Assembly: GCA_903929315.1 (NCBI GenBank)
Contig: CAIYUC010000002.1
Coordinates: 7,626 to 71,625 of the forward strand
DNA length: 64,000 nucleotides
Direction of reading: 5' to 3'
From: an uncultured Bacteroidales bacterium
GTDB lineage: Bacteria; Bacteroidota; Bacteroidia; Bacteroidales; FEN-979
Part shown: positions 3,518 through 25,560 of the stretch, piece after piece
Numbering within the stretch: position 1 is the first letter of the stretch
Layout: every line of letters begins with the position of its first letter
The notes under the pieces: model-generated
Database searches by the model: none
What the model saw: the letters and a program-made list of their open reading frames with translations, nothing else
Told to the model about the DNA's origin: nothing
Translations under genes and position numbers: made by a program

Positions 3518-3533
3518 TCCCGCACAATATATG

Positions 3534-6793: not shown

Positions 6794-6798
6794 CGATC

Positions 6799-7374: not shown

Positions 7375-7388
7375 TAGAAAAAACAGAC

Positions 7389-8042: not shown

Positions 8043-8126
8043 ACCTGATCGGCGGAATAGGTAGACGCGTTGGTCTCAAAAACCAATGAGAGCAATCTCG
8101 TGCCGGTTCGATTCCGGCTCCGGGTA
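8043..8126 (+). tRNA. tRNA-Leu(CAA)-like copy with defective acceptor stem (probable pseudo-tRNA / att remnant)
   Basis: Identical to tRNA 5530-5613 from position 9 through the variable arm, with T-arm GCCGG-TTCGATT-CCGGC. However, the 5' acceptor ACCTGAT mismatches the 3' TCCGGGT at 6:67 and 7:66, and position 8 is C rather than U. Confidence 0.65.
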
Positions 8127-8331
8127 CATGCAAAGCAGATTAGTAAGCTGACAATCAGTCAATTATTTAATTACTAATTTGTTACGGTAAGAATAAGGGT
8201 AAGAATTTGTACATGAAAGGCTGGTGAAAACCGGCCCTTTGTCTTTTCTGGTATTTCCAAAAATATAACATCCAAACTTCTTCAACCGAAATTTCCATTT
8301 CGGAAAATCTAAAGCAAATTACATTTGATCG

Positions 8332-9537
8332 TTATTGTTTAATAAATTTCTTTACAGCAATTTCTTCTTCATTCTGGACTTTTATTATGTAAATCCCGGA
8401 TAATAAATTTGATATATCCACTGTAGTATGAATATCTTTTGCATTTAATCTTTTAAATATTTGTCCTTCGATATGTAAAATTTCCACATCGGATTTTGGA
8501 ACACATTCAATAGTGAGTCTATCACTGGCGGGATTAGGAAAGATAAAGAACTTAAATGAATTTTTAACCTCAATAACACCCGTACTATTACAGCTTCGCA
8601 TGGGACGACTTACCGTTACAAAATTTGAATCCACGGTTATAATACGGTAAGAACGATTAAACGCTGCCGCAGTTTGAACATAGCGGGGGCCGTTGGGCCA
8701 GTTCTCACTAATAGTATCTCCCTTTCTGTTAGCGACAACATTTTGATGTTCATGCCCGGCCAGCACTACATCCACATGATTTGAATCGCAGATATTCAGA
8801 AAATTGGTCCTGTTATTTTGGAGAGAGTTGGTAGCCGTGTCTAAAGTAGCAGCAGTAAAGGGAGTCCCATCAGAGTTTGTACCGGCAGCATTAACAGGTG
8901 GATGATGCATTACTATAATTTTTCTTTTGTTGCCGTTACTGCTTAGTATGTTTCTGAGCCAACTACATTGTGAATTTGAAAGCCCGGTTCCCATGATGAT
9001 TGCAGGGTTGGGGGGATATCCATATGGGCTGTCGTGGCCTGAACGGAGAAACACAATAATAGCGATATCAGTATTAATGACATAATCCATATCAGGTGCA
9101 ATGTATTTCGGATAATAAAAAAGTGTATCATTTGATATGGGTATGTGAATCGAATCGAATCCTGTCCAGTATTCGTGGTTCCCCGGTGTGAAGTAAATGG
9201 GGATGGTTTTGGAAGAATCAATAAAATATGCGCCGACAGCAGGGTTTGTAATTGTTGGAGGGAACAAGTGTTGTGTAATCGTTGGATACATTCCATAGGG
9301 TTGCTGGTTACCCACATCGGAAATATCCCCGGTTACAATAACAAATGCGGGTTTAGGGTCAAGGGCAGTAAATTCTTTTACCGCACATTGGAAGTATTGT
9401 GCATTGGTGTCACTATTCGAGGTAGGGATGTTGGACACGTGCATGTCGCTAATATGAACAAAAGAGAATTGGGCGAAAGCACTCAGCGCTGCCATACAAA
9501 CTGTTACGAAAAGTAAAATCTTTTTTTTCATGGTCAA
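8332..9537 (-). CDS. Secreted metallophosphoesterase with T9SS C-terminal sorting domain
   Basis: Signal peptide, metallophosphoesterase motifs (SDMHV, TGDISD, GNHEYW, VMHHPP, GHEHQN), and a C-terminal FPNPASDRLTI...GIYIIKV T9SS-type domain. Confidence 0.85.
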   Translation of the reverse strand: MTMKKKILLFVTVCMAALSAFAQFSFVHISDMHVSNIPTSNSDTNAQYFQCAVKEFTALDPKPAFVIVTGDISDVGNQQPYGMYPTITQHLFPPTITNPAVGAYFIDSSKTIPIYFTPGNHEYWTGFDSIHIPISNDTLFYYPKYIAPDMDYVINTDIAIIVFLRSGHDSPYGYPPNPAIIMGTGLSNSQCSWLRNILSSNGNKRKIIVMHHPPVNAAGTNSDGTPFTAATLDTATNSLQNNRTNFLNICDSNHVDVVLAGHEHQNVVANRKGDTISENWPNGPRYVQTAAAFNRSYRIITVDSNFVTVSRPMRSCNSTGVIEVKNSFKFFIFPNPASDRLTIECVPKSDVEILHIEGQIFKRLNAKDIHTTVDISNLLSGIYIIKVQNEEEIAVKKFIKQ

Positions 9538-9560
9538 TATAATGTAAAATGTCGTGGTTT

Positions 9561-10565
9561 TTATTTGTTTAAGAATTTTCGAATTCTGTTTGCTGCATTT
9601 TGTCTGATATTGTAATAGTAAAAAGGATAATCAAAGCTATGGTAAACACCCTTAGGAAACCCACTAAGTGAATCTAATATGGCTATTCTGGATTCATCAG
9701 CCGTAGAACAAACCAATACACCCTTTACTGTGTCCACACGGGCATCAGCATACTGCGTTATTTTTACCCAGACTCCTGCTTTATTTGGAAAGAATGACCC
9801 CAATCCTTGTATTGTGTCTGCTAAGGTTTCATCTCTCGTCCAAGTGATCGGATTGATAACAAGGCCTACTTCCCCATATAGTACAGGATTCACTCCAGTA
9901 AAATCATTGGCTTCGGTGTTATATGAAATAATCACTCCTGTATCATCAGGGCCAGTCGCAAATTTCAGGGGGGGATTCGCTTGAAGAAAGGCTTTTGTAA
10001 CGGGACCGCCGATAACATATGCAGCAATCATTCTTGAATAAACCCGAGGATTAGATTTCAGGTATCCTGATAATAGATTGCATACTATATTTGCCCCTTG
10101 AGAATGTCCGGCTATAATAAACGGGCGTCCCTGATTGAAGTGTTTGATATAGTAATCGAAGGCCGCGGTTGCATCCGTAGTAGGAATACCTGCAATAATA
10201 TTTAACCGGTTATCCGGCGATGAGTTGTCTTGCCGGTAGTAGGGTGAGTAAACATTAGCAGCGGTGTCAAAAGCAGTTGCCTGTCGGGCAAAAGCCTGAG
10301 CTGCACCTGCCATCATCAGGGAGTCGTCGATCGCGCAAATCATGGACTTGGAATTATCCTTTGTCCAAGATGTCGTTGGATACAGGTAAAAGACATCTGC
10401 TTTGTAAATTGTCGCAGGCAATGACAGCCAGTGAGCAGCTTGTGAGTAATCAACAGATGTAAAAACAGTGAGTGTATTGTTACTTTTCTTGCAACCATTG
10501 ATAATAATTACTCCAAATCCCATTATGATTAAAGGGTAAATTAAGGAGCTGATATTTGTTTTCAT
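9561..10565 (-). CDS. DUF3089-like alpha/beta hydrolase (lipase-like) lipoprotein
   Basis: Signal/lipobox (IINGC), ADVFYLYPT and GHSQG nucleophile-elbow motifs. Confidence 0.7.
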   Translation of the reverse strand: MKTNISSLIYPLIIMGFGVIIINGCKKSNNTLTVFTSVDYSQAAHWLSLPATIYKADVFYLYPTTSWTKDNSKSMICAIDDSLMMAGAAQAFARQATAFDTAANVYSPYYRQDNSSPDNRLNIIAGIPTTDATAAFDYYIKHFNQGRPFIIAGHSQGANIVCNLLSGYLKSNPRVYSRMIAAYVIGGPVTKAFLQANPPLKFATGPDDTGVIISYNTEANDFTGVNPVLYGEVGLVINPITWTRDETLADTIQGLGSFFPNKAGVWVKITQYADARVDTVKGVLVCSTADESRIAILDSLSGFPKGVYHSFDYPFYYYNIRQNAANRIRKFLNK

Positions 10566-10851
10566 GTTAGATTTTTAATTTGATGATTAAAGGAGCAGCA
10601 GAACTACTGGTGTTTTTCAAATCAGGTCTTTTTATTGGGGGTAGAATAATTCCTGATAAATACTTCTGGCTAAGCACCCGGCAGGAGGTCGGACTCACAT
10701 AGGATTTTTTGGATGTTGAGAAGGTGCACACGGTTTATCCTTGGAACAAGGTAAAGGTACAATATAAAATTATCATTGCAAGAAAAACTGGTTTTTAATA
10801 ATGGTTGATATATCGATATTCCAATTTGTGAGACATTTGGTTTAAATTCCC

Positions 10852-10928
10852 ATTTCCTCAATAAAATCAACTACTTTCAGGTAATCTGGAATGATTCTAA
10901 AGTTAGATAATTGGTCAGTTAAGTGTAC
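10852..10928. repeat. 77-bp repeat (1 mismatch versus 34461-34537) carrying a decayed gene 3' end
   Basis: atttcctcaataaaatcaactactttcagGtaatctggaatgattctaaagttagataattggtcagttaagtgtac. The minus strand translates to ...LSNFRIIPDYLKVVDFIEEMGI*. Confidence 0.9.
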
Positions 10929-11102
10929 TTTTTACCACTTGAAACCCACGTTAATCGTGGGTTTCTGTTTTTTAAGTGCCCAAATAAGTACCCAAAAGAT
11001 TTTTTTATATTCTTGAGGAGGTGGAAAGATCAAAGAATAATTTCAGTAAATCATGCATTTGACTATTAGGGATTCTCAATTTTTGTCAAACTTCTGTTTT
11101 GT

Positions 11103-11402
11103 TTATTCTAACAAACTGATTATACTTTCACTATTTTCATCGTTTAATTTTCCATTCTTAATGACATTTTCTTTTGAGGTATTAGCATAACAGTATACAC
11201 AAAAATGACTACAAGTGTTGTACATTCCAATGTCCTTGCTAATTAAACAACCACATTCCTTTCGCTGTCCTTTGTCTTTTAGTTTTTCAGGCGATATGTG
11301 CAATTCATCAAATTGTTCTGCGAACAGGCTGTTCTTTTCAGGCAATTTTCCGTATGAGAGATAGTACAATAATTCTTTGTCTTTGCTAAAAATACGTTTC
11401 AT
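11103..11402 (-). pseudogene. C-terminal fragment of a DUF1848-family protein
   Basis: Only 99 aa. It matches the C-terminal Cys-rich end of DUF1848 proteins as I remember them ([30 protein letters not shown]). Full-length members are about 3x longer. Confidence 0.55.
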
Positions 11403-11751
11403 ATTTCAGAAAAGGCAAACTGTTGGGAGCTTGCGCAAACAGTTTTAGAAAAAAAACAAGAGAGATTGAGACGGTCAAGACTAGCTTTTTCATATTATGG
11501 TAGTTCATTAATTGCTTTACTTTTGTGGTTCGCACAAAAGTAAAGCTCATTAGAATTCATAAAGTTTCAAGTTTGAACTGCCGCCATTGGTGACGCATAA
11601 TTATACCTTTCACAAATGTAATATTTTTGAGAGCGCTAAAACTTCTTCCAGGTAGACATTTTATTTCCATTACACTACATTAATTTACAAGAGAATTGAT
11701 AAGCTCCGTTTCCCGGAGCCTTTCTGCTATAGAGTGCCATCATCCGCAAAC

Positions 11752-11814
11752 GAATAATACCGGTCATCCCCGATGATGATATGATCCAGGACAGCCATAA
11801 GAAATACACGAATG
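11752..11814 (-). repeat. 63-bp direct repeat containing a RadC/JAB C-terminal remnant (copy 1)
   Basis: The minus strand reads MAVLDHIIIGDDRYYSFADDGTL* (RadC C-terminal signature VLDHIIIG..Y.SF). 62/63 identical to 14014-14076. A hairpin terminator gctccg-tttc-ccggagc lies downstream. Confidence 0.8.
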
Positions 11815-11947
11815 CCATGAATGACGAATAACGAATTCAGAAATAGCATTCGTCATTTGTCATTCAGGAATTCGTCATTGGTTAAATCCCTTCTTCTTTA
11901 GTTTTTTTATTAACAATTATATCACCTTTTGCCGGTTTGCCGGATTA

Positions 11948-12145
11948 ATGACAAAACTTAATATGGTAAAAATTGAAAAGAAATCACTGACATCGAAGGA
12001 GATAATCAGCAAAATTTACCGGATCAGGGGCGAAAAAATGATCCTTGATGAAGATCTGGCTTCACTCTATGGAGTTGAAGTTAAAAGGCTGGATAATGAT
12101 TATTTTTGGGAGATTAGAAGAAATACCCAAATATTATTTTCCTAG
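11948..12145 (+). pseudogene. Truncated ORF6N-domain (KilA-N-like) gene
   Basis: The first ~48 aa, and the upstream leader, parallel the intact paralog at 60953-61525 (MTKLNMxKIEKKS...IYxIRGEKxILDEDLAxLYGVEVKRL). The ORF then diverges and stops. Confidence 0.7.
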
Positions 12146-12672
12146 ACAATGAAGCCAAGATCCCGACATTTGTAAGATTTCATCTTCAGGACAGGTAGTT
12201 TACTGCCGTTACGAATCACTCTGCTGATAAATTCATCACATTCTTTTAGACTAAATGTTTTTTGTGTCAGAGCGCTGCATAAGAAATCCATTGTGGTAAG
12301 ATAATCAATGGAATGCAGATCGCAATATTGCCGTATATCTTTTAGGTTGCTGCTTGCAATTATATTATTGTTAAAACGAGCAACAGCCATGCAAGCACTT
12401 TCACCATCTCCTTTGAAGAGAGATTTCATAATATATACATACTCTTTTTTAATCTCTGGAGTATCCTCCGGAAACGGTAATAGAGTAAACGAACCTGATG
12501 CAAGTATTTTGTCAATTAACAGCTTCCGCTTATGAAACCGCTCTATTTCACAATAGACTTTATCAAGAAGTAGAATTTTGTTGTCCGGGAAAATCAGAGG
12601 AAGTATGTCTAATTTACCAGCAGAGATAAAATGAGAAATCACATCGGAATCAATAAGGATACTTCTATTCAT
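12142..12672 (-). CDS. PIN-like domain protein (DUF4411-like)
   Basis: N-terminal MNRSILIDSDV plus GDGESACMAVA and SSNLKDI acidic positions fit a PIN-like fold. Third gene of an XRE-ImmA triad, overlapping the ImmA stop. Confidence 0.6.
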   Translation of the reverse strand: MNRSILIDSDVISHFISAGKLDILPLIFPDNKILLLDKVYCEIERFHKRKLLIDKILASGSFTLLPFPEDTPEIKKEYVYIMKSLFKGDGESACMAVARFNNNIIASSNLKDIRQYCDLHSIDYLTTMDFLCSALTQKTFSLKECDEFISRVIRNGSKLPVLKMKSYKCRDLGFIV

Positions 12673-13411
12673 ATGTATTATTTTGAAGATCCTCGATTTC
12701 ATCTACATTCATGCCAAGGTCAATCAACAATGAAAAATAGTGGGATTCCGAAATTTTTTCCTGATCAAATAATTCACGTGCAAGGGAACCATAATCGCCC
12801 AAAACAAGGTTATTGTTTCCTGATCCATAGAGGTCTATAGAATATCCATGTTCAAGCGCACCTCGTTTCACATTCTGAGCAAAAACATCAATGTGGGCTT
12901 GATCAATAATGCCTAGTTGTTTAAGTCTATATAGTAGTGCTTGCCTGGATGTTCCAAAGTACTGTTCAATCTTTAGGATCGTTTTCAGATTGATTTTATT
13001 TTTTCCAAGTTCATGATCCGGGATCAGGGATTTTATGCCGGTTTCAGGAAGAAGGAAAACCGCAGCAAACAAGTCAGCATTATATTCCTCTCCAGATCGG
13101 GTATCGAACAATCCGACCGGACTTATACTGAATGAAAAATTCTGCTGAACGAATAAATGGTAACATTCATGTGCGATGGTAAAATTTTGATTTCCGATAG
13201 TTCGTGAGCTATTCACAAGGATAAATCTCTTAGTATCCATATCCTTGTTTACCTTGATTGACAGACCGCCGAAATTCTCTCTCAATGGTTTAAAAACAGT
13301 TATGACATTCAGCTTGGTAAGAAGGCTGCGTACCTGTATAGGATCGTTGTAACCAAGACCACACAAAGTTCGGAATTCGTTCGCCTTTTTTTCGATTATT
13401 AGGTTATTCAT
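12665..13411 (-). CDS. ImmA/IrrE-family zinc metallopeptidase (COG2856/DUF955)
   Basis: 248 aa with HEXXH motif in FTIAHECYHLF. Overlaps the XRE gene by 8 nt. Confidence 0.8.
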   Translation of the reverse strand: MNNLIIEKKANEFRTLCGLGYNDPIQVRSLLTKLNVITVFKPLRENFGGLSIKVNKDMDTKRFILVNSSRTIGNQNFTIAHECYHLFVQQNFSFSISPVGLFDTRSGEEYNADLFAAVFLLPETGIKSLIPDHELGKNKINLKTILKIEQYFGTSRQALLYRLKQLGIIDQAHIDVFAQNVKRGALEHGYSIDLYGSGNNNLVLGDYGSLARELFDQEKISESHYFSLLIDLGMNVDEIEDLQNNTYE

Positions 13412-13748
13412 GGCTAAGTTTCCTCTTCATATGGATATAATTCCGGACAATTTTTTGAAAATTAGCAATTAGAAGCATGTCCTCAGATGCAACATTGTTA
13501 GCCCTGAACGCAAGGGCAATGTTTAAGGTTTGCACTTCAGGATCTTGCTCAAAAAGGTCATACTCATCCACACAAAATAATGCTGCTGCTTTTGAAATCA
13601 ATTTTGAAGGAATTGCCCTATGTCCATTTTCATAGTAACTAATTTCTTCTCGTGTAACTCCCAAATATTCGGCAAATTGGGACTGACTTAGCTTCATTCT
13701 TTCCCTTAATTGCTTGATATTATTTCCAATAATGATGTTTTGGTTCAT
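13404..13748 (-). CDS. XRE-family helix-turn-helix regulator
   Basis: IKQLRERMKLSQSQFAEYLGVTREEISYYENGHRAIP is a classic Cro/C1 HTH. Confidence 0.85.
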   Translation of the reverse strand: MNQNIIIGNNIKQLRERMKLSQSQFAEYLGVTREEISYYENGHRAIPSKLISKAAALFCVDEYDLFEQDPEVQTLNIALAFRANNVASEDMLLIANFQKIVRNYIHMKRKLSHE

Positions 13749-13777
13749 GGTTCTTGACTTTTGGTGGCATGTAAATA

Positions 13778-13825
13778 ATGTTACAAATATAATATAATTT
13801 TATAATATAACAACTTTTGTAACAT
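13778..13825. promoter_or_regulatory. Inverted repeat atgttacaaa ... tttgtaacat upstream of the XRE gene (putative operator)
   Basis: 10-bp perfect arms at 13778-13787 and 13816-13825 flank a duplicated tataatata, 30-77 nt upstream of the XRE start. Confidence 0.45.
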
Positions 13826-14013
13826 AAATTTGAAATTTATTAATGATCCATTGGAACATTGAAAGCTGAATCCATTCTGCTATTGCACTTAAAATCAGGT
13901 TATGAACACAACGGTAACGATAGCTTTAAGATTATTAATAAGTAGACAATGTAAGTAGAAAAGCCCCGGAATACCATGGCTAAGACATTTATAGGTTGGC
14001 TTCAACAGCAAAA

Positions 14014-14076
14014 GAATAATACCTGTCATCCCCGATGATGATATGATCCAGGACAGCCATAAGAAATACACGAATG
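14014..14076 (-). repeat. 63-bp direct repeat containing a RadC/JAB C-terminal remnant (copy 2)
   Basis: MAVLDHIIIGDDRYYSFAVEANL* on the minus strand. The upstream 'coding' part is made only of gaatgac-type stutter words. Confidence 0.8.
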
Positions 14077-14170
14077 AACAAGAATGACGGATGACGAATG
14101 AGTAAGAAATACACGAATGACATGGATGACGAATAACGAATGATATTAAAGAATTCATCCATTGCGGATA

Positions 14171-14554
14171 TCATTCCTGGCATCCGTCATTCTTGTTCAT
14201 TCGTGTATTTTCTCTGGCTGTTTGAATACTTTTTACAATAATTGAAAGCAGCTCAGTGTTTTCCCTGATAAGCGGGGCAATCTTTTCTGTCGGATAGCTT
14301 TTGTTCCCATCAATCAGTTCAAGCCAATAATTGGTCTCATCCATTTCCTCTTCCGCAATTTTCAGCTTATTCACAAAATCCTTCCTGGACTTTAATCTGA
14401 ATGCTGCTCTGTAGTTTGCACCTGAGGATGTCGCGGACCTTACAAGTTGTCGTGCAAGGATCTGGGTAGAATAATCCTTGGGTAATTGAGGCACTGTTGC
14501 CAGGATTCTTAGGGCAAACGCTTTTGTCCGATCTTTAATGTTTTCTCCTTTCAT
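14171..14554 (-). CDS. Four-helix-bundle protein (23S rRNA intervening-sequence protein family)
   Basis: RQLVRSATSSGANYRAAFRLKSRKDFVNKLKIAEEEMDETNYWLELI is the family core. Flanked on both sides by gaatgacgaat stutter arrays (14060-14215, 14610-14800). Confidence 0.8.
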   Translation of the reverse strand: MKGENIKDRTKAFALRILATVPQLPKDYSTQILARQLVRSATSSGANYRAAFRLKSRKDFVNKLKIAEEEMDETNYWLELIDGNKSYPTEKIAPLIRENTELLSIIVKSIQTARENTRMNKNDGCQE

Positions 14555-14946
14555 AGTGTTTTTTAATGCTTAATCGGAGAAAAATGAAAAGGTGATACTG
14601 AAAAGCAAAAAATAATGACAAGAATGACGAATACTTTGGATGACGAATGAAATGCCAGGAACCGAAGAATTTCGAATCCTGTTGTAACATTTTTCATTCG
14701 TAATCCTTGTCATTCGCATATTTCATTCTTCATTCCTGCATGCCGGCAGGCAGGCGTGATTCTTGTCATTCGTGTATTTTCTTCTTTGCCCGAATCAACA
14801 AACGGGGCCTTTTCTATTTTTTCTCCCCTCCCTTGTAAATGATGCGTCTGGTTCTTACAGTTGGGTAGGGGCCGGGGGTGAGGTAGTGGATGTTATAGAA
14901 AAGAACAAGTCGAAAACAAATCTTTTAGTATTTACTTTTTAACTAA

Positions 14947-14960
14947 ATTGCACGTGCAAT
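14947..14960. promoter_or_regulatory. 14-bp perfect palindrome ATTGCACGTGCAAT upstream of the HNH gene
   Basis: Read directly, 57 nt upstream of the ATG at 15017. It shares the CACGTGCA core with the palindrome at 20935-20954. Confidence 0.45.
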
Positions 14961-15016
14961 CCTGTGCTGGTATAAATTACCTGGGGACAATTTCAATCGA
15001 CTAAAAGGTTGTTCAT

Positions 15017-15907
15017 ATGGATGATGCTATACGTCTGTTTGCTTTCAACTGGCTCACAGAACAAATGAAAATCCATGGAGACGTGCTCCCCAGAACACTT
15101 TTGGAAAGAGGGTTCATTTTTGAAAGCCAGGCAGTCCATCTCATAGGTCCCCAGGGAATATGGAAACCAAGGATGATGGAACTACCCATTACAATTACCA
15201 CCAAATTTGGTGGCCCTTACGATGATTCTTTTACCAGAGAAGGATTACTGGAGTATAAATATCGTGGACAAAACCCAAATCATCCGGATAACGTGGGCTT
15301 GCGGAAGATCATGCAATTGAAAAAACCACTTATCTATTTTTATGGAATTGCTCCAGGGAGATATTTTGTTGTACTCCCGGTTTTCATCATCAATGACAAC
15401 CCTTCTTCTTTAACATTTACTGTCCAGGTGGATGAACTGAAAGCCTTAAACCAATTATCCTCATGGGAAGATACCGATGCAACCCATTGGAGAAGGGCTT
15501 ACCTGACTACAAGTACGAAAGTTCGATTACATCAACGTTCTTTTCGTGAAAGAGTACTTATTGCTTATCAGTCACAATGCTCGTTTTGCCGACTAAGGCA
15601 CAATGAACTTCTTGATGGTGCACATATCATTTCTGATGGTGAAGAAAAAGGCGATCCCATTGTTCCAAATGGATTAGCCTTATGCAAAATCCACCATGCT
15701 GCCTTTGATAGCAATATTATTGGTGTTACCCCTGATTATGATGTGCACGTGCGTGAAGATATCCTTCATGAAATCGACGGTCCCATGCTGAAATACGGTC
15801 TGCAATCGCTTCAGGGGAATAAACTAATCCTACCAAATCATAGGAGAGACTATCCGGATAAGGAAAGACTCGAGTACCGGTACGATCAGTTCCGGAAAGC
15901 AGGATGA
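15017..15907 (+). CDS. HNH endonuclease (HNH_2-type) with uncharacterised N-terminal DNA-reader-like domain; restriction-like
   Basis: The C-terminal half reads FRERVLIAYQSQCSFCRLRHNELLDGAHIISD...NGLALCKIHHAAFDSNIIGV, the COG3440/PF13391-type HNH pattern. The N-terminal ~150 aa (YKYRGQNPNHPDNVGLR...PLIYFYGI) is of the kind seen in modification-dependent enzymes. Confidence 0.75.
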   Translation: MDDAIRLFAFNWLTEQMKIHGDVLPRTLLERGFIFESQAVHLIGPQGIWKPRMMELPITITTKFGGPYDDSFTREGLLEYKYRGQNPNHPDNVGLRKIMQLKKPLIYFYGIAPGRYFVVLPVFIINDNPSSLTFTVQVDELKALNQLSSWEDTDATHWRRAYLTTSTKVRLHQRSFRERVLIAYQSQCSFCRLRHNELLDGAHIISDGEEKGDPIVPNGLALCKIHHAAFDSNIIGVTPDYDVHVREDILHEIDGPMLKYGLQSLQGNKLILPNHRRDYPDKERLEYRYDQFRKAG

Positions 15908-16026
15908 GGAAGAAATACACGAATGACAAGAATGACAAATGACGAATTCAATAATAGAATTCGTGTATACGTCATTCGGCTATTCGTCATTGAAATGATG
16001 CTAGAAACCGGATGGTTTTTCGAAAA

Positions 16027-19000
16027 TCAAATCAACCTTTCTTCAAGCAGATCCCGCCATATAACAAAGCCTTTTCTTTCATCTGAATAATCATGGACAA
16101 CCCGGCTGAAATTTTCAGGCTGTGATTCCAGAAAGGTTTGACGACCATCATTTCTGATAATATTCAGTTGCCGGTCTATCACCTGTAACTGCTTCCATAG
16201 TTCCTGTTTGTCTTTTTCAATATGCCAGACATATGTTGCTTCCTTAGTATCCAACGTTTCCATTACCAGATGATATTGTTCAACCCCTGATAATAGGAAT
16301 ACAAATGAAAAAGGGTTCAGTACAAAACGAAGTTTGAGAATATCACTTTCATGCTTCTCAGCTAAATACCTCAGTTGTCTGTAATGGATTACTTTCTTAT
16401 TCTTCAAAAGATCCTCCAGTAATTCCTCACCTGTTTTATAAAGAGAAGACTTTGTTTCTTCCTGAGATTGGATCTGATTAATATCTAACAAATTCTGTTT
16501 GGACTTATTTGGATTCCCACCAAGAATGAATCTGGAGACAAATCTGAACCTGGCAATTTCAATAATCTCTTTGTTTATTTTTTCCAGATCAGAAGAGGTC
16601 GCCAATTGGGCAACCAAGGTTTTTCCCTGAAACTCCGCCTGGATAAGTATATTGACATCCTTTTTTTTCAGGATCTTCGAAAAATACGGTTTCAGCACAT
16701 CGAACTCAGGCCGGATCTGATCATTTTCAATTTCAAATTCCAGTTCCTGATTTACTTGAGCTACCATGTATCTGAATGCAATGGTTCCGTATCTGAATTC
16801 AAGATCATCAATAGATAGGCTGATCGGCTCTTCAATTGATAATGTATTTTCAGATGGTAGATTATCCGGTTCTGGTTCGTCAAACAAGGAAGCCTGTTTT
16901 TCAAGTTTTCTGTAATAGGTGTTTCTTTTCAGGAACAATTTATCCAGGTAATCGATCTTATGATCACGATAATCATAGATAACCGGAGCGATCTCTGATC
17001 GTTGAACCCTTCCGATATATTGTACAAGCTTACCCTGGAAGGAAAACGGATAAACAAGAAACAAACGGTCGATATTCTGAAGATCAATGCCCTCTCCAAA
17101 GAATTGTCCCGTCGTTATTAATACCTGGAAACTGCCGTCCTTAAGCATTTTCCATTTCATGGTTCTGCTGCTTTCTGGGTCATCACCTGAAAGGACAATC
17201 GTTTCATACGATTGTTTAAGATATTGGTTTAATGAATCAATATGCTCTTTCCTTTCCGTAATGATCACGACCTTTTTGCCAGAGGCCAGCTCAGTGATCA
17301 CATCTTTTAAAATTAATTTGTTCCTTGCAGAATCATGGATAAGGACCTTTGACAAAGTCTCGAACTTATCCGTTTTCGAATTGAAGGGAACATCTAGTTC
17401 TGTGTTGCGGATAATGATTTTTGCAGTCTTCAGGGTCGAAATATCCGGAGCTTTAATTTCAGAAATGATTTCCCCCAGATGGATGAAAATAAGCTCCCCG
17501 TCATTATACTTCCGGAATGGGGTCGCGGTTAACCCATACAAATAAAAGGAAGATAGCTTCCCAATGGTATTTCTATAGGACTCTGCCGGAATATGGTGAC
17601 ATTCGTCAACGATGATTGTTCCGATTTTGTTCAATAGATCAGCAGATCCCGGGCTTTCCAATAACTTTGATAAACTCTGGATCAGGGCTACAGTAATCTT
17701 CCGGCCGTCTTTTCTTTTTCCTTGTCCGATACGTCCTATTTCATTTTTGGGAATGCCAAGAAAGGATTGGATTCTTTCAACCCATTGATCGGCCAGTTGT
17801 TTCCTGTGAACAATGATTAATGCTGCCTGTTGTTTTTCAGCAATGATCTTTAACCCGACTATTGTTTTTCCAGTTCCGGGTGGTGCTACAATGACCCCCA
17901 TGTCTTTTTTCGAAGCCGCGGCTACAGCAAGTATTTGATGTTCTCTAAGCTGAACATCCATTGTAAAGAATACAGGTTCGGCTTTTTTCCTATTATCCGA
18001 AAAATCATTTTCAATGTTGTTTTCCCGGCAAAAGCGAAGCAAGCGACCAGCCATTCCTCTGGGGATAATAACACAATCATCTTTTTCTTCAATAAATCTG
18101 AAATACCTTTCTGACCCCCAGGTGCTTTTACCAAGCTTCTTTTTGATGATAAATTCACTGCTCAGGAAATTAAGCTCTTCCTTCAGAAAATTGATCAGAG
18201 ACAAAGGAAGTCCATTCCTTGTTATTGTAATTGTCCGATCAAGTTCAATTTTGATTTTTCCAGTTACCAGCGATGGTTGATTTCCTCCGTCCTTTTTTAA
18301 TTCCGATGATTTAACAAAGAGTTCGTAGAGCTGATCGAGTTTAGAGAAAGGCACCCTTTGAATGGTTTTCAGAAAACCCCATTGATCTTTATATGGGTCT
18401 ATTGTATCTGGATTGATAAAACAGTTATTTCCCTGATCTGCACAAATCTTGTTTAATGGTAAGGCAATCAGGTTACCAAATCCTTTTCCTGAGAGAAGAT
18501 CCTGATTGGGAAACAGTCTGTCAAAGCTTGAATTCTTATCAAATGTTGAAAATAAACCAATCCTTTCCAACAGAGTGATGATGATCTTTCTGCTTTTCGA
18601 GGCCGGGTAAGGCCTTTCAAAGAATATCCAGACATGGCCTCCCTTTCCTGACCGGGATCGTTCTAAGTAAGCGGGTAAGCCCTGGCCACTACAAAACATA
18701 AGAAACGATCGGCATTCCTCCATCCAGTTGGCTTTATCAAAGTCAGCCGCAATAAAACATGAGGTATTATCTTTTAACAATGGGTAAATACCAATGAATT
18801 GGTCCCCGTTGAGGTGTTTGGTAATTTGGTCATCTGAAAGTATACGGTGCTTTTTATCGGAATAGTTCTGGAATGTTCCCCCTTTCATTTTATGTAACCT
18901 GTATTGATAGGAGTCATATTCATAGGCAGGGATATAAGTGGCTTTACCTCCCTTTTCCAAACGAATGGCAAAAATATCTTCTCTTCCACGGAATAATAAT

Positions 19001-19065
19001 TTGAAATAGAAAAGATTTACCAAAGATGTTTGATCCATTTTTAATTTCTTACGGATGTATATCAA
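16027..19065 (-). CDS. Archaeo-eukaryotic primase (PrimPol)-like domain fused to SF2 DEAH helicase, with ~290-aa unknown C-terminal region
   Basis: - AEP motifs: CFIAADFD, SGKGGHVWIFF, FDRLFP.
- Helicase motifs: APPGTGKT, IIVDECHH, GLTATP, TTGQFFGEGID, QYIGRVQR.
- The start may instead be the Met at 19038. Confidence 0.8.
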   Translation of the reverse strand: MIYIRKKLKMDQTSLVNLFYFKLLFRGREDIFAIRLEKGGKATYIPAYEYDSYQYRLHKMKGGTFQNYSDKKHRILSDDQITKHLNGDQFIGIYPLLKDNTSCFIAADFDKANWMEECRSFLMFCSGQGLPAYLERSRSGKGGHVWIFFERPYPASKSRKIIITLLERIGLFSTFDKNSSFDRLFPNQDLLSGKGFGNLIALPLNKICADQGNNCFINPDTIDPYKDQWGFLKTIQRVPFSKLDQLYELFVKSSELKKDGGNQPSLVTGKIKIELDRTITITRNGLPLSLINFLKEELNFLSSEFIIKKKLGKSTWGSERYFRFIEEKDDCVIIPRGMAGRLLRFCRENNIENDFSDNRKKAEPVFFTMDVQLREHQILAVAAASKKDMGVIVAPPGTGKTIVGLKIIAEKQQAALIIVHRKQLADQWVERIQSFLGIPKNEIGRIGQGKRKDGRKITVALIQSLSKLLESPGSADLLNKIGTIIVDECHHIPAESYRNTIGKLSSFYLYGLTATPFRKYNDGELIFIHLGEIISEIKAPDISTLKTAKIIIRNTELDVPFNSKTDKFETLSKVLIHDSARNKLILKDVITELASGKKVVIITERKEHIDSLNQYLKQSYETIVLSGDDPESSRTMKWKMLKDGSFQVLITTGQFFGEGIDLQNIDRLFLVYPFSFQGKLVQYIGRVQRSEIAPVIYDYRDHKIDYLDKLFLKRNTYYRKLEKQASLFDEPEPDNLPSENTLSIEEPISLSIDDLEFRYGTIAFRYMVAQVNQELEFEIENDQIRPEFDVLKPYFSKILKKKDVNILIQAEFQGKTLVAQLATSSDLEKINKEIIEIARFRFVSRFILGGNPNKSKQNLLDINQIQSQEETKSSLYKTGEELLEDLLKNKKVIHYRQLRYLAEKHESDILKLRFVLNPFSFVFLLSGVEQYHLVMETLDTKEATYVWHIEKDKQELWKQLQVIDRQLNIIRNDGRQTFLESQPENFSRVVHDYSDERKGFVIWRDLLEERLI

Positions 19066-19086
19066 ATCCAGATTGACAGAGAATGC

Positions 19087-19923
19087 CTATTCTTTTTGGA
19101 TTGCTTCAATAACTTCAGTGATGAGCTTATAAACAACAATTTTGAAATCATCCTTATTATTTTGAAACATTTTATCAATCTCCTCCTGAGTAAACTTATC
19201 AAGTTGTTTTTGAAGAGATGCAAGGATTTTCGCTTTCAGAAAATCATTCTTCTCAAGAATTTTTAAAATCTGCTGACCAAGATATCTAGCACCGATTATT
19301 TTCTCGTTGAAAGGATCAGCAAACCAATCATTTACTTTATCAGCATAAATCTCTTCGCCAGCAATCGTAAAATAATGATAGAGTAAATATGTAAAATCGC
19401 TGACATCTCTTTCCCGGATACCAGGATTATCCAACCAGGCGATAAGCTTCAGAATACATAATCCAGGTAGTGTAATTACCTGAAAATTGCCATCCATTTT
19501 AACTGACATTTCGGTAACCTCTTTTGTTCCAAGGACTGTCAGGTAAGTCCACTTTTTTCCTTTGATTCTGACTTCGTTGTTTTTCTCAATTTTCCCGAAT
19601 GGGATCAAATCAACGATAACACCTGACGGAGCATGTAATCGATATGATTCTGGGTCTTCAAGAAATTTTTCAGTTTCAATCAGATATTTTATGATTTCAC
19701 GATATTGCTGTTCATCATTAACCAAAATTGCAAAATCAATATCTGTAGTCATCCGATATGGAGGAAGATCGTTGAGATGTTGCAACCATAAATCCCTGCT
19801 AAGCGCACCAATCAGGAAGTAGTCAATTCCAAATTTGAAAAATGCTTTTTCAAGAGAAACTATCGTAGGACCATATTGGGCTTTAAGATATTTCTCAAAG
19901 TTTTTCTTTAATATATTTTCCAT
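19087..19923 (-). CDS. AbiEii/DUF1814-like nucleotidyltransferase
   Basis: Pol-beta-type NTase motif FLIGALSRDLW...YRMTTDIDFAIL, and a later LKLIAWLDNPGIRERDVSDFTYLL resembling AbiEii helices. 21 nt upstream of the helicase. Confidence 0.65.
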   Translation of the reverse strand: MENILKKNFEKYLKAQYGPTIVSLEKAFFKFGIDYFLIGALSRDLWLQHLNDLPPYRMTTDIDFAILVNDEQQYREIIKYLIETEKFLEDPESYRLHAPSGVIVDLIPFGKIEKNNEVRIKGKKWTYLTVLGTKEVTEMSVKMDGNFQVITLPGLCILKLIAWLDNPGIRERDVSDFTYLLYHYFTIAGEEIYADKVNDWFADPFNEKIIGARYLGQQILKILEKNDFLKAKILASLQKQLDKFTQEEIDKMFQNNKDDFKIVVYKLITEVIEAIQKE

Positions 19924-20917
19924 AAATTATTTGTGCAGTTTCAATGTTTCTTGGATCTCCGGTATTTAACAAATCAGCATAAATTAGTATCGGTGGAACC
20001 GTTTTTACATTATCATCATTAAATTTCCAGAATTTCTGGTAGGCTTTCAAAAAACCATTTGGTTCTTGGATCAACTTGAGATTTTTAATCAATCTCGCCC
20101 GGGTTTCTTGCGTATAGATTGTCAATTCTGCCGGAACAAGATATTCCGTTAACAGATTTGCAGCAGGTTCAGCTCCCCATAATGTTTCTGGTCCAAGATT
20201 CAGGTTTTTCCAATTTCGGATTTTTATTGTAAAGGGTATAAAATTACCAAGAAGCAGGTTGGGTTTCAATTTTTGTGGGTAATGTTGGATCCATTTCTGA
20301 AGAAGATCTTCTTTGTTTAATAGTTTGAAATTTCGGTTCTCAATTTTTCTCACATATCCTAATTCTTCCAGGTTTTTAAGGATATAGGTTACATTACCAA
20401 TGGCGATATCATATGTAGTAGCGATTTCACGGTAAGGAAGGTTGATAAAATCTTCATTATTAAGAAAATGAAAGAGAAGTATCAACCCGGTTTTGTTAAA
20501 AGCACGTTCTGTTGCAGGTTTCTTCTTAACTTCCATGTCTTTTTTCCCGTCTACATATATAATATTATTCCCTAACCGCAAAAAAACATTCCCTGCCAGA
20601 TCCATATAATTTATTTCTTCCTTCTTCAACTTCTCGCGTAAGTTGGGGTAGATGATCTCTGCCAGAATCAACAAATCCCTGAATTCTTTTTTCAAGTCCA
20701 GGATAGTTGGTAAATGGATGTTTCGTAACTGATTTTTTACTTCTATCCAGAAGACAAAAGTTTGTCCTTGTACATTCAGTTTGAGCTTTCCATCAGGGAT
20801 TAAGTTTTTTCCAACCCGGTTCTTTGGAATTTCCTGCCCAATATAATTCCATTCAAAATCTAGAGGCACTAGATTTTTCAGTTTATTCACTACAATATTG
20901 ACAAATTCATTTTTCAT
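19895..20917 (-). CDS. AbiEi-like wHTH protein with PD-(D/E)XK-like N-terminal region
   Basis: Central wHTH (REIATTYDIAIGNVTYILKNLEELGYVRK). The C-terminal PPILIYADLLNTGDPRNIETAQIIYGKYI recalls AbiEi-type antitoxins. The N-terminus has IPDGKLKL...FWIEVK (D...ExK). Overlaps the NTase gene by 29 nt. Confidence 0.6.
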   Translation of the reverse strand: MKNEFVNIVVNKLKNLVPLDFEWNYIGQEIPKNRVGKNLIPDGKLKLNVQGQTFVFWIEVKNQLRNIHLPTILDLKKEFRDLLILAEIIYPNLREKLKKEEINYMDLAGNVFLRLGNNIIYVDGKKDMEVKKKPATERAFNKTGLILLFHFLNNEDFINLPYREIATTYDIAIGNVTYILKNLEELGYVRKIENRNFKLLNKEDLLQKWIQHYPQKLKPNLLLGNFIPFTIKIRNWKNLNLGPETLWGAEPAANLLTEYLVPAELTIYTQETRARLIKNLKLIQEPNGFLKAYQKFWKFNDDNVKTVPPILIYADLLNTGDPRNIETAQIIYGKYIKEKL

Positions 20918-20934
20918 TGTTCATTGAGTTATAT

Positions 20935-20954
20935 TGTTCACGTGCACGTGAACA
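20935..20954. promoter_or_regulatory. 20-bp perfect palindrome TGTTCACGTGCACGTGAACA, putative operator of the wHTH-NTase-helicase operon
   Basis: Lies 18 nt upstream of the start at 20917, immediately downstream of a minus-strand TATATTTG -7 box (20957-20964). Outer arms ttgttcat/atgaacaa extend the symmetry. Confidence 0.6.
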
Positions 20955-21022
20955 TGCAAATATAATGAACAAAATGTAATTCCCAAATACTTTTACTTAA
21001 AAAATTTTGATTTTCAGAAAAA

Positions 21023-21994
21023 TCAGGATTTCCCGCTCTTATTTGGAATACTATCCCAGGTCCGTTCCATTTCGAGCTGTTGAAAATCTTCAGTTATTTT
21101 GATGTACTTGTTAAAGACACTGTCTTTTATATGACCCGTGGTCTTCTTGATCGCTTTTAAATTCATGCCGAGAATGACACTGTTTGTGATGAATGTTTTC
21201 CGGGCAGTATGATTGGTGATCAGCTTACATTTTGGTTCTGTATGCTCTCTTGCCTTGCCACCGGAATAATCCACATAGGAGACCAGCGAGGTAATTTCAG
21301 CATCAAAACAACAATCTTTGATGTGGTCGTTTATTTTTTGGGCGGAAAGTTTTGGTAATGGATAATTTTCAAGATCTTCATACCTGGCAAGGATCTCACG
21401 TGCAAATTGATTCAAAGAGATGACCTCAGTTTTATGAGTTTTAACAATAGTTTTGAATATCTTGCCATCCTTAATATTTTCTCTTTTCAGGTTATGGAGA
21501 TCGGAAACGCGCATGCCGGTAAAACACATGAAACAAAAAAGGTCTCTCGCCCTTTTCTTCTTGAAGGTATCGAATTCAAAATTCAACAGTAGCATAAGCT
21601 CATCTATTGTCAGGTAAATGACATCTTTCTCGCGCTCTACTGCTTTGAAATCCTTAAAAGTAAGATCTTTGGTATAACCCCGTCTTTGACACCACGTAAG
21701 GAATGCTTTCAGGTTACTGATGATCTTTGCAAAATAGTTATCCTTTGCCTTCCTTTTAATAAAAGCATAAGTTCTAAGATTGTCGAAAAATTTGAAATTG
21801 ATAGAATGGAGATCGACCTTATATTTTGTGTCCTTCTCGAAATCCATAAGAAAATTTTTAAAAGTCCCGTAACAAACGATGGTTCTGTTTGCCCTGATAG
21901 CTTTACTGCTTTCTATATATTCATCCAGGACCTCAAAGAAAGTCCTGTTGGTTTTTCTTTGTTTCCCTGAAGGATTGAAAATAGCATTTTTCAA
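21023..21994 (-). CDS. Tyrosine site-specific integrase (Bacteroidota phage-integrase family)
   Basis: 323 aa. The catalytic region has FCFMCFTGMRVSD (Arg), HTARKTFIT (H-x-x-R) and GHIKDSVFNKYIK (Tyr). Its 5' end faces the tRNA 3' fragment at 22097-22110. Confidence 0.88.
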   Translation of the reverse strand: MKNAIFNPSGKQRKTNRTFFEVLDEYIESSKAIRANRTIVCYGTFKNFLMDFEKDTKYKVDLHSINFKFFDNLRTYAFIKRKAKDNYFAKIISNLKAFLTWCQRRGYTKDLTFKDFKAVEREKDVIYLTIDELMLLLNFEFDTFKKKRARDLFCFMCFTGMRVSDLHNLKRENIKDGKIFKTIVKTHKTEVISLNQFAREILARYEDLENYPLPKLSAQKINDHIKDCCFDAEITSLVSYVDYSGGKAREHTEPKCKLITNHTARKTFITNSVILGMNLKAIKKTTGHIKDSVFNKYIKITEDFQQLEMERTWDSIPNKSGKS

Positions 21995-22096
21995 ATACGC
22001 TTCTGTGGGTGAAATTCAAAAAAATGTATTTTGCAAGGCACTGATAAACAACTGATACAGAAAACTGTAGTTAAATACAGTAAAATATCCATTACC

Positions 22097-22110
22097 CCGG
22101 CTCCGGGTAC
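22097..22110 (+). repeat. att-like 14-nt copy of the tRNA-Leu 3' end (ccggctccgggtac)
   Basis: Identical to 8113-8126. The following ~35 nt (gttcaaatgcgaagtgtaaagtgcgaagt) parallel the sequence after the intact tRNA (5616-5650). Confidence 0.75.
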
Positions 22111-22308
22111 CCGTTCAAATGCGAAGTGTAAAGTGCGAAGTGTAATATAATTTGCACTTTGCACTTTTCGTTTTACACTTTAGACTTTACGTTGGGAACT
22201 TTGATGCAGAGTTAAAAACAAATCTTTTCACTGAATCCAATCTTTGGAAAGAATAATAGTAGGTAGGACTTGGATGATTGAAGCCTTATTTATCAGGTGC
22301 TTTAAATT

Positions 22309-24435: not shown

Positions 24436-25560
24436 ATGATACCCAGGTATATAAAAAAAGAGATACTCACATCATTATTGAAACCAAATACAGTAATTGG
24501 AATTTTCGGAGCCAGGAGAACAGGGAAGACTTTCCTCATGCAGGAAATTGAGAAGGAATTGAAAGAAAAAGTTCTGATGGTGCAAGGTGAAAACCTTGAT
24601 GTTAGTGAAGTCCTTTCTTCACAACGATTAAACCAGCTTAAAAGGTTTACGGAAGGGGTCAGTTACCTGTTTATTGACGAAGCGCAGAAAATTCCGGATA
24701 TAGGGATCAACCTGAAGTTGATGATTGACAATATTCCGGGTCTTCACATCATGGTTTCCGGATCTTCCTCTTTTGATCTCAGGAAAAATATCGGTGAACC
24801 ACTCACAGGTCGCAGTAATTTCTTTCATTTATACCCTATTGCTCAGATGGAACTGGAGGAAAATTTTCTGCAAACAAAGGAAAACCTTGAAATGAGACTC
24901 ATTTACGGAGGGTATCCTCAGGTTATAACTGCAGCTACAACAAATGAAAGGACACGTATTCTGACTTCCATCCGTGATGGGTATTTATTAAAGGATATCC
25001 TTGAACTGGATAATCAGAAGGACTCATTATTTATTTTCAATCTTTTGAGGTCAATAGCCTTTCAGATAGGTAACGACATCTCTTTTTCCGAACTGGCGTC
25101 GAGGTTGAATGTTAATAAGAAGACTGTGATGCGTTATCTTGAACTGCTGGAAAAGTGTTATGTGATTTTTTCACTTCATGGTTTCAGCCGCAATCTTCGG
25201 AATGAATATACAAAAAGTCCAAGGTATTATTTTTGGGACAATGGAATCCGGAATGTACTGATTTCAAATTTCAATTCCCTGAATCTTCGGGATGATATTG
25301 GTAAGTTATGGGAGAATTATTGCATATCCGAGAGACTAAAAAAGAATAGTTACCAACAAAAAATAGTAAACCACAATTTCTGGAGAACATATGATCAGAA
25401 AGAGATTGATCTGATTGAAGAGTCCGGTGGGAAATTAACCGGTTTCGAATTCAAATGGAACGAAAGTAAAACCAGGGTACCGAAGCACTTCCTTGATGCC
25501 TATGATCATTCGGAATTTAAAGTCATTAACCGTGAGAATTGGATGGAATTCATAAGCTAA
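24436..25560 (+). CDS. AAA ATPase with DUF4143 C-terminal domain
   Basis: Walker A GARRTGKT, Walker B YLFIDEAQ, and a DUF4143-type region ([10 protein letters not shown]...EIDLI). Confidence 0.85.
   Translation: MIPRYIKKEILTSLLKPNTVIGIFGARRTGKTFLMQEIEKELKEKVLMVQGENLDVSEVLSSQRLNQLKRFTEGVSYLFIDEAQKIPDIGINLKLMIDNIPGLHIMVSGSSSFDLRKNIGEPLTGRSNFFHLYPIAQMELEENFLQTKENLEMRLIYGGYPQVITAATTNERTRILTSIRDGYLLKDILELDNQKDSLFIFNLLRSIAFQIGNDISFSELASRLNVNKKTVMRYLELLEKCYVIFSLHGFSRNLRNEYTKSPRYYFWDNGIRNVLISNFNSLNLRDDIGKLWENYCISERLKKNSYQQKIVNHNFWRTYDQKEIDLIEESGGKLTGFEFKWNESKTRVPKHFLDAYDHSEFKVINRENWMEFIS

Follow-up and report, generated by a model that had tools for sequence, protein, structure and literature searches.

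Introduction

Three adjacent genes on a contig of an uncultured Bacteroidales bacterium (CAIYUC010000002.1 of assembly GCA_903929315.1; the 64,000 nt from position 7,626 to 71,625, which we analysed as a whole, are called the window) resemble two kinds of described system. One is AbiE, a bicistronic type IV toxin-antitoxin (TA) and abortive-infection module. Its AbiEi antitoxins repress their own operon via inverted repeats in the promoter. The other is IEE of E. coli, a protein of 786 aa in which a 'Z1568-like' archaeo-eukaryotic primase (AEP) domain is fused to a helicase-like domain of superfamily 2 (SF2). IEE is a Mn-dependent, error-prone DNA polymerase that joins or extends 3' single-strand ends through microhomologies of at least 4 bp, for which both domains are required; it is also a DNA-dependent ATPase for which unwinding was not detected (PMC9943667). 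In vivo it promotes the excision of insertion sequences (IS) in a transposase-dependent manner (PMC9943667; bioRxiv 10.1101/2023.06.07.543989). The Pfam family of its AEP domain, AEP-TOTE, is named after conflict systems composed of TPR, OB, TBP and Effector parts (TOTE; Aravind, Iyer & Burroughs 2022, as cited in PMC12458937).

The three genes are called g1, g2 and g3 here. An earlier note, made from the DNA letters of the window, had proposed that they form one conserved and undescribed conflict system. We favour another reading, with a probability of about 0.62: this 5-kb segment would consist of two independently mobile modules of known kinds, an AbiE pair (g1-g2) and a member of the IEE / AEP-TOTE family (g3), juxtaposed within a tRNA-Leu island.

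For comparison we collected loci carrying relatives of g3 (16 from genomes, 80 from metagenomes and 38 from viral contigs; single loci bear L numbers) and added the contexts of four selected g3 homologs and of the g3 protein itself. The 16 genome loci came from a single-protein genome scan, and the loci used for statistics from an alignment-based metagenome scan. Counts refer to 95 loci with close g3 homologs, of which 79 were informative upstream and 77 downstream, and to 76 non-redundant upstream genes, redundancy among loci having been removed by neighbouring gene sizes only.

Layout of the locus

The earlier note had described three packed minus-strand genes, the first two overlapping by 29 nt, and we found these open reading frames (ORFs) as described. 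The features of the locus are as follows.

19895-20917, minus strand: g1, 340 aa; AbiEi_2 antitoxin/repressor with an N-terminal PD-(D/E)xK-like domain, a winged helix-turn-helix (wHTH) and an AbiEi_2 C-terminal domain
19087-19923, minus strand: g2, 278 aa; AbiEii-type nucleotidyltransferase (NTase) toxin
16027-19038, minus strand: g3, 1003 aa from its ATG; primase-polymerase (PrimPol)-SF2 ATPase of the IEE family
18331-19008, minus strand: AEP (PrimPol) domain of g3, placed by the AEP-TOTE profile and the alignment to IEE
16903-17955, minus strand: SF2 (XPB/UvsW-like) ATPase core of g3, with Walker A GTGK391T, DECH at residues 478-481 and motif VI QYIGRVQR
16030-16893, minus strand: C-terminal domain of g3 of ~290 aa, fold unplaced, specific to the nearest, mainly Bacteroidota clade
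20935-20964, minus strand: promoter and candidate operator of the AbiE module (-7 box and palindrome)
15942-15964, minus strand: terminator-like hairpin ~60 nt past the g3 stop, a pattern match from a consensus scan

The frame of g3 is also open from a TTG at 19065 (16027-19065, 1012 aa). The gap of 21 nt between g2 and g3 that had been given before holds for this TTG only; with the ATG at 19038, preferred by the database gene calls and by all homolog alignments, the gap is 48 nt. The -7 box and the perfect 20-bp palindrome pointed out upstream of g1 are both present. The box is of the Bacteroidota type (TATATTTG, 20957-20964), and the palindrome (TGTTCACGTGCACGTGAACA, 20935-20954) lies between it and g1. 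The offsets of the two, -47 and -37, are identical upstream of the g1 orthologs in L144, L146 and L009, and related palindromes are also present in L147 and L149. Since the offsets are kept upstream of g1 orthologs, including that of L144, which has no g3, box and palindrome belong to the AbiE module. The hairpin at 15942-15964 is a probable end of the transcription unit, judged from its pattern. A sigma-70 promoter scan gave 26 sites against 19.5 expected, with a consensus that is not informative for Bacteroidota.

The IEE / AEP-TOTE family includes g3

Pfam recognises AEP-TOTE (PF22548, 5.6e-75, 252 bits), ResIII (4.7e-30) and Helicase_C (6.5e-11) in g3. With IEE of E. coli O157:H7 (ECs_1305, Sakai genome), BLASTP gives an alignment of 734 aa in which 33% of the positions are identical (E 2e-109). 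Both proteins are colinear, with an N-terminal AEP domain followed by the SF2 ATPase: residues 12-712 of g3 match 54-773 of IEE, which itself matches AEP-TOTE at 1.7e-98. The catalytic Asp/His/Asp set of IEE (D142/D144, H178, D216) is found in g3 as D99/D101, H135 and D173, the Tyr at the ribose-discriminating position (Y128) as Y85 and the Walker A Lys (K451) as K391; the DECH box, of the DExH type, and motif VI are also kept. These catalytic positions of g3 are invariant across an alignment of 51 homologs. The proposal of an intact AEP joined to a DEAH helicase core thus agrees with both the residues and the profiles, and g3 is a member of a family that has been described. Judged from its homology to IEE, g3 is expected to couple an error-prone DNA polymerase that needs Mn to an SF2 ATPase that depends on DNA. 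The family is large, with at least 8000 clusters of g3 relatives at 90% identity; of the representatives at 50% identity, 1882 reach an E-value below 1e-30.

Both g3 and IEE are carried with an integrase on an integrative element, SpLE1 in the case of IEE. They differ in four respects. g3 has an additional conserved C-terminal domain of ~290 aa and hence departs from the two-domain architecture of ~786 aa; it lacks a ~43-aa N-terminal extension of IEE; and the genes upstream are AbiE for g3 but DUF3987/YfjI and a Gp2-like protein for IEE in SpLE1. Finally, the data on IS excision come from E. coli and not from a Bacteroidota member.

The earlier note could not place the C-terminal ~290 aa of g3, and neither could we. 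Pfam found no family in it, nor in its two halves at E up to 5. The AlphaFold2 (AF2) model (mean confidence score, pLDDT, 78.9) consists of two modules, each of a beta-sheet plus a long helix, for which Foldseek had no significant match in PDB or BFVD (best E 0.11 and 7e-3, TM at most 0.26). Identifying this domain with the 'TBP' of TOTE systems is therefore unsupported by either Foldseek or Pfam. It is confined to the nearest clade, mainly of Bacteroidota with one Chloroherpetonaceae genome, and is missing from distant g3 relatives as well as from IEE.

Comparison with other named systems

The likeness to TOTE systems resides in the AEP domain, which belongs to the Pfam family bearing their name; NCBI also calls some g3 orthologs 'TOTE conflict system archaeo-eukaryotic primase domain-containing protein'. 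We compared the locus with the TOTE definition as reconstructed from a secondary citation. By that definition, a TPR-CSD/OB partner should be sought, and the scanned island ORFs contain no TPR or CSD family. The matched families of the 76 immediate upstream genes and the annotated clusters of recurrent neighbours likewise show none, the only TPR hint near g3 homologs being a weak TPR_14 match in a SWIM protein at 6 loci. Nor did Pfam recognise a TBP-domain protein, whether in the island or in the genes that recur around g3 in the close clade. Because neither a TPR-OB nor a TBP partner was found, the locus falls outside the TOTE definition in this reconstructed form. Literature searches on 'TOTE conflict system', or on AbiEi together with a primase-polymerase, returned nothing.

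In a profile search of the PDB, the solved structure nearest to the AEP domain of g3 is the Marinitoga CAPP protein (7NQD, 1.5e-21; 7NQF is a further entry of it), and the ATPase is nearest to XPBII/Rad25 (3e-27). The PADLOC model 'PrimPol, CAS-associated' also matches g3 (2.9e-59). CAPP has a different fusion partner, and the g3 locus is without cas genes or a CRISPR array: no cas family occurs among the scanned neighbours and no array in the window. This rules out g3 as a CRISPR-associated PrimPol.

Replicative PrimPol-helicases such as pRN1 ORF904 or P4 alpha use a helicase of the SF3 or DnaB type, whereas that of g3 is of the SF2 XPB/Rad25 type, and Pfam finds no PriCT or Zn-finger/Zn-ribbon priming family in g3. 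Among 50,697 cultured phage genomes, matches were confined to the helicase domain and no full-length match (AEP plus helicase) was present. Plasmid-borne relatives reside on large replicons only, from 56 kb to 1.4 Mb, and several of the plasmids inspected carry a typed replicon of their own. On this distribution over phages and plasmids we rejected g3 as a phage or small-plasmid replicase.

We also rejected, as a general rule, the idea that g3 is a restriction-like subunit working with an Eco57I-type methyltransferase: a methyltransferase gene is near the g3 homolog in ~5-8 of 95 loci, and the island of the window lacks one. A closer parallel is provided by the guest genes of type I restriction-modification (R-M) operons. 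There too a repertoire of Fic, AbiEi/AbiEii, HipA, RhuM, AlbA_2-HATPase_c_4 and AAA_14/DUF4143 genes is tightly packed on the same strand before a large SF2 ATPase gene. The host gene differs, being a PrimPol-ATPase rather than HsdR, and methyltransferase or specificity genes are present in a minority of the g3-type loci. Makarova and colleagues reportedly described in 2011 that such guest genes are found inside type I R-M operons but are not components of them.

g1 and g2 form an AbiE pair

The AbiE assignments of the earlier note hold at the level of profile models, from Pfam for both genes and from PADLOC for g2. Residues 198-336 of g1 match AbiEi_2 (PF09952) at 1.1e-29 and 104 bits, and its homologs carry the name 'type IV TA system AbiEi family antitoxin'. 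The wHTH proposed for g1 gives weak HTH_24/MarR matches (aa 160-194) below the gathering cut-off. The D...ExK pattern proposed for it is D42...E59-x-K61 and falls on an N-terminal domain predicted as alpha-beta-beta-beta-alpha-beta in an AF2 model of pLDDT 87; D42 is near-invariant among 61 homologs, E59 and K61 being the majority residues. With this model, Foldseek returned weak NucS/EndoMS and MarR-like wHTH matches only (best E 5e-3), AbiEi being absent by name among the 50 matches listed, and searching the PDB by sequence was of no help with either g1 or g2. The assignment of g1 to AbiEi hence rests on Pfam.

g2 scores 32 bits against AbiEii (PF08843, cut-off 22.5, E 1.5e-7) and 3.8e-5 against the PADLOC AbiEii model. 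Its orthologs in L147 and L149 (45% and 34% identity) match AbiEii without a weak flag (E at most 1e-5). The motifs IGALS, TTDIDFA and LKLIAWLD...RERDVSD align with those of five other AbiEii subfamilies (hGxxS, DIDF, KLxA..R..D).

The pair thus has the sequence features of an AbiE system: an AbiEii NTase domain with its motifs and, overlapping it upstream, an antitoxin gene with the AbiEi C-terminal domain. It is like described AbiE type IV TA systems in being bicistronic with overlapping genes, in combining a wHTH antitoxin bearing an AbiEi_2 C-terminal domain with an NTase toxin bearing AbiEii motifs, and in having a palindromic candidate operator in the promoter that is kept together with the gene pair. 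It is unlike them in the extra PD-(D/E)xK-like domain at the N-terminus of g1 and in the divergence of g2, a weak AbiEii at 32 bits. PADLOC v2 would not call the pair automatically because it holds no AbiEi model that detects g1.

The two modules occur apart

If the three genes made up one conserved system, orthologs of g1 and g2 should accompany g3. Among the 95 loci they do so only in the lineage of the window itself (L017) and in one decayed remnant (L009). Orthologs of g3 at 78-84% identity are found without them, with other genes directly upstream:

L001: Fic
L003, L012: AlbA_2/HATPase_c_4
L002, L009: AbiEi/AbiEii pairs unrelated to g1-g2
L004: a wHTH and NTase pair

Conversely, the g1-g2 orthologs of L144, L147 and L149 stand alone, their flanks containing no g3; those of L144 are 66% (g1) and 65% (g2) identical to the genes of the window, and the 29-nt overlap is kept there and in L149. 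Because g3 occurs without g1/g2 and g1-g2 without g3, the triad is a lineage-limited juxtaposition of two autonomous modules. The proposal of one conserved and undescribed three-gene system fails on this point and on the membership of g3 in a described family.

The specific g1/g2 pair is therefore not syntenic with helicase homologs outside its lineage, but unrelated AbiE pairs do recur beside them. The AbiEii genes near g3 homologs fall into at least 5 subfamilies, none of which resembles g2 by BLAST, although the NTase motifs are common to all of them. In L010, L011, L018, L044, L088, L101 and L103, AbiE pairs follow the g3 homolog or lie on the other strand. Since unrelated pairs recur beside the helicase, the association between AbiE and the helicase is not pure chance.

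g3-type genes usually end operons with variable first genes

When the six genes on each side of the g3 homologs were clustered over the 95 loci, no universally conserved neighbour emerged. There is nevertheless a strong bias in orientation vs other adjacent gene pairs: the gene upstream of g3 homologs is co-directional in 69 of 79 loci (87%), as against 71% of the other pairs (p=0.001), and the median gap to the g3 homolog is 53 nt. Downstream, the neighbouring gene is co-directional in 40 of 77 loci only. Hence g3-type genes usually end an operon whose first genes vary. Homology between loci starts ~20 nt before the ATG of g3, which argues that the gene has no conserved promoter of its own.

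In Pfam terms, the 76 upstream genes include 14 with HATPase_c_4 (12 of them also with SLFN_AlbA_2), 10 AbiEii, 6 Fic, 2 HipA, 2 AAA_14/DUF4143, 2 DUF6088 and several methyltransferases. Distant relatives of g3 (30-41% identity) also have Fic, HipA, McrBC, RhuM or AlbA_2 genes upstream. The pattern of a TA cassette next to an IEE-like gene exists outside Bacteroidota as well: HigB-HigA lies 26 nt upstream of such a gene on an Acinetobacter baumannii plasmid (NZ_CP038501; L151, 4111-7250), and in A. lwoffii (L154, 2859-7586) an Xre-type antitoxin precedes the gene and HipBA follows it. On alphaproteobacterial plasmids (L157, from Sphingobium plasmid NZ_CP115459, 3297-5744; L152, L156, L158) the IEE-like gene is either the last of a TniB-TniQ operon, with a 4-nt overlap, or convergent with a tyrosine recombinase trio. 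These neighbourhoods suggest a link to transposition and recombination modules.

Two further kinds of neighbour were seen. A protein of 103-105 aa without a family is encoded directly upstream of g3 homologs in L069 (1011-1325) and five other loci. The SWIM zinc-finger protein with the weak TPR match measures 532-564 aa and stands beside g3 homologs in six loci (e.g. L001, 3296-4987; L023, 6372-7967).

The literature covered does not explain the operon-terminal position behind interchangeable toxin or regulator cassettes. Within that same coverage, neither the conserved C-terminal domain nor the integrase-cassette-IEE island design of Bacteroidota is described. We regard all three as leads, some of which the review that defines TOTE may already treat.

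The tRNA-Leu island

The context of tRNA-Leu, integrase and HNH nuclease recognised by the earlier note was found again, and a 14-bp direct repeat now bounds the island (8127-22110, ~14 kb):

8043-8127, plus strand: tRNA-Leu(caa), integration target (ARAGORN; second of two copies)
8113-8126: left copy of the repeat, CCGGCTCCGGGTAC, at the 3' end of tRNA-Leu(caa)
15017-15907, plus strand: HNH_2 nuclease gene (Pfam HNH_2, weak; PADLOC HNH, 4.5e-20), convergent with g3
21023-21994, minus strand: tyrosine integrase (Pfam Phage_integrase, Phage_int_SAM_5), directly upstream of g1
22097-22110, plus strand: right copy of the repeat, CCGGCTCCGGGTAC (attR), just beyond the integrase

Past 22110, the right flank holds glycosidases of the type IX secretion system (T9SS) and other housekeeping genes. 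The HNH_2 gene is cargo of the island and stands outside the operon; related proteins of 296/297 aa form a cluster found next to the g3 homolog in 3 further loci.

The 14-mer of the repeat is also present at tRNA-Leu or att sites of L001, L009 and L146. In L001 and L004, islands of integrase, cassette and g3 occupy tRNA-Leu(caa) with the polarity seen in the window, and in L146 the order is att 14-mer, integrase, g1-like and g2-like gene. Homologous integrases stand 3-4 genes upstream of g3 homologs in L001, L002, L004, L009 and L017. Since this layout of integrase, variable cassette and g3 recurs, the integrase and the IEE-like gene are the backbone in the nearest subclade and the genes between them exchangeable. 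Over the whole set, a tyrosine integrase lies within 6 genes of the g3 homolog in 11 of 95 loci, and the flanks of 19 of 60 loci include a tRNA or tmRNA gene.

L009 contains a decayed remnant of g1, g2 (1-95) and g3 (1-88) at 2578-4124, just outside the att 14-mer, and at 6765-12991 an intact integrase, a different AbiE pair and g3. This arrangement looks like tandem accretion or cassette exchange at a tRNA-Leu site. In the window, the two tRNA-Leu(caa) copies (5530-5614 and 8043-8127) are 94% identical, and the 85 nt after the first (5607-5691) resemble those after the right repeat (22103-22187) at 78%. The 2.4 kb between the tRNAs, which include an ORF of the 23S_rRNA_IVP family (5676-6089), may be the remnant of another island.

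The remainder of the island is mixed. The genes for a Metallophos protein, which bears a T9SS sorting tail, and for a DUF3089 hydrolase lie next to the tRNA and inside the repeats (8332-10565, minus strand); unless they are cargo, the functional island does not take up the whole segment bounded by the repeats. A 99-aa ORF (11103-11402, minus strand) matches the C-terminal end only of DUF1848 (PADLOC 'RTasDUF1848', DRT-associated) and is probably a gene remnant. A minus-strand group at 12142-13748 comprises an HTH_3 gene (13404-13748), a gene for an M78/ImmA-IrrE peptidase (12665-13411) and, after these two, a 186-aa ORF without a family; the first two correspond to PADLOC capH/capP and to the candidate system PDC-M69A/B. 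Small ORFs, among them a 23S_rRNA_IVP-family gene (14171-14554), stand close to repeated segments of 60-90 nt (11728-11859, 13990-14164 and 15909-15970; 79-91% identity) that are rich in ACGAATGA motifs. Outside the island, at 24436-25560 (plus strand), an AAA_14/DUF4143 ATPase matches the PADLOC candidate PDC-S01 over its full length (8.6e-144), and this family recurs beside g3 homologs in 5 loci.

Discussion

How would two known modules work side by side? In the reading we favour, g1-g2 would be a self-contained AbiE TA and abortive-infection cassette. By comparison with known AbiEi proteins, g1 most likely binds the palindrome just downstream of the -7 box and represses the operon, and g2 would be the NTase toxin that g1 holds in check. 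This pair may also stabilise the island or confer abortive infection. Homology to IEE suggests that g3 acts on DNA ends, or on transposition and recombination intermediates left by recombinases and transposases, and may thereby serve its own mobile element or compete with other elements; we do not take it for an origin-specific replicase. The slot between integrase and g3 holds exchangeable cassettes in the nearest subclade. We infer that the three genes are co-transcribed, g3 being most likely reached by read-through from the AbiE promoter, because it has no private promoter, the gap is 48 nt and a terminator-like hairpin appears only after g3. Regulation of the two modules would then be coupled, expression of g3 following the de-repression of the TA operon.

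Several points weigh against this picture of mere neighbours. In 23 of 95 loci an AbiEii-like gene of any subfamily is no more than 3 genes away from the g3 homolog, and 15 of these loci have it as the immediate upstream neighbour in the same orientation. By our own estimate this rate is far above the genomic background, and the recurrence could reflect functional cooperation rather than mere co-location. The strong operon-terminal bias is likewise compatible with a genuine multi-gene system whose partner varies, and the review that defines TOTE may already give such partners a role. The activity of g3 may differ from that of IEE because the E. coli protein is without the 290-aa domain. Finally, the gene calls in the fetched loci are greedy longest ORFs rather than the output of a trained gene finder, and many contigs are short.

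In a rival reading, the PrimPol-ATPase is the constant part of a modular conflict system and its upstream partner an exchangeable sensor or effector (AbiEi/AbiEii, SoFic-like Fic, HipA, AlbA_2-HATPase_c_4, RhuM or HigBA). The three genes of this locus would then cooperate, with AbiE as the partner: for example, the toxin or regulator would sense infection and the polymerase-ATPase would subsequently act on invading or damaged DNA. The co-directional upstream genes with their short gaps, the lack of a promoter proper to g3 and the return of the same repertoire in distant relatives and on proteobacterial plasmids (HigBA, Xre-type antitoxin) all agree with such a system, as do the naming of the AEP domain after a conflict system, neighbours typical of defence islands, PADLOC candidates included, and the lack of full-length matches in the cultured phages. 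We nevertheless find it unlikely. Its supposed partners are unrelated in fold and chemistry, g1-g2 orthologs are found without g3, and the AbiE pairs of seven loci lie downstream of or opposite to the g3 homolog; many members of the family adjoin genes for transposition or recombination where no toxin is encoded. Guest genes of these kinds are also said to lie inside type I R-M operons of which they are no part, and AbiE, SoFic, HipBA and HigBA have been reported as stand-alone modules.

A different division of labour, in which g3 replicates the excised island together with the integrase and an origin while AbiE serves for addiction, is very unlikely in our view. In its favour, AEP-helicase fusions are common as replicases of integrated elements (PMC11724360), the tRNA-Leu islands of the nearest subclade have the integrase and g3 as their two conserved genes, and tRNA or tmRNA genes occur in the flanks of 19 of 60 loci. 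Yet the helicase is of the SF2 XPB/UvsW type, whereas the known replicative fusions have an SF3 or DnaB type; Pfam finds neither a PriCT nor a Zn-finger family in g3; and E. coli IEE, which acts in end-joining, showed ATPase activity but no unwinding. The scarcity of integrases within 6 genes of g3 homologs, the large plasmids with typed replicons of their own and the lack of the full-length gene in cultured phages also speak against a replicase. Such a scheme had been given in the earlier note as the competing reading, and it came closer than the three-gene system: an island with an AbiE addiction cassette agrees with our results, whereas the characterised homolog of g3 is an end-joining polymerase and no replicase.

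On the reading of two juxtaposed modules, the locus is cautionary for the discovery of defence systems: the tight packing of a TA pair with a large enzyme does not amount to a three-gene system. The genes of ~1000 aa annotated as 'DEAD/DEAH box helicase', very common in Bacteroidota, become recognisable as PrimPol-ATPases of the IEE family that also bear an uncharacterised C-terminal domain. The IEE-like gene is usually last behind interchangeable cassettes and often lies between an integrase and a tRNA. If real, this pattern would give a hint at the regulation and purpose of IEE-type enzymes, whose role has been learned from IS excision in E. coli only. One might go further and speculate that IEE-family PrimPol-ATPases are pan-bacterial operon-terminal genes wired to the promoters of autoregulated TA or abortive-infection cassettes (AbiE, HigBA, HipBA, SoFic-like Fic, AlbA_2 regulators), so that de-repression upon infection or stress switches on an error-prone end-joining polymerase directed at foreign or broken DNA. 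We consider this quite unlikely. If it were true, the triad of AbiE and an IEE-type gene would be one working instance of such wiring, and the true role of IEE would be in conflict and defence rather than in IS excision.

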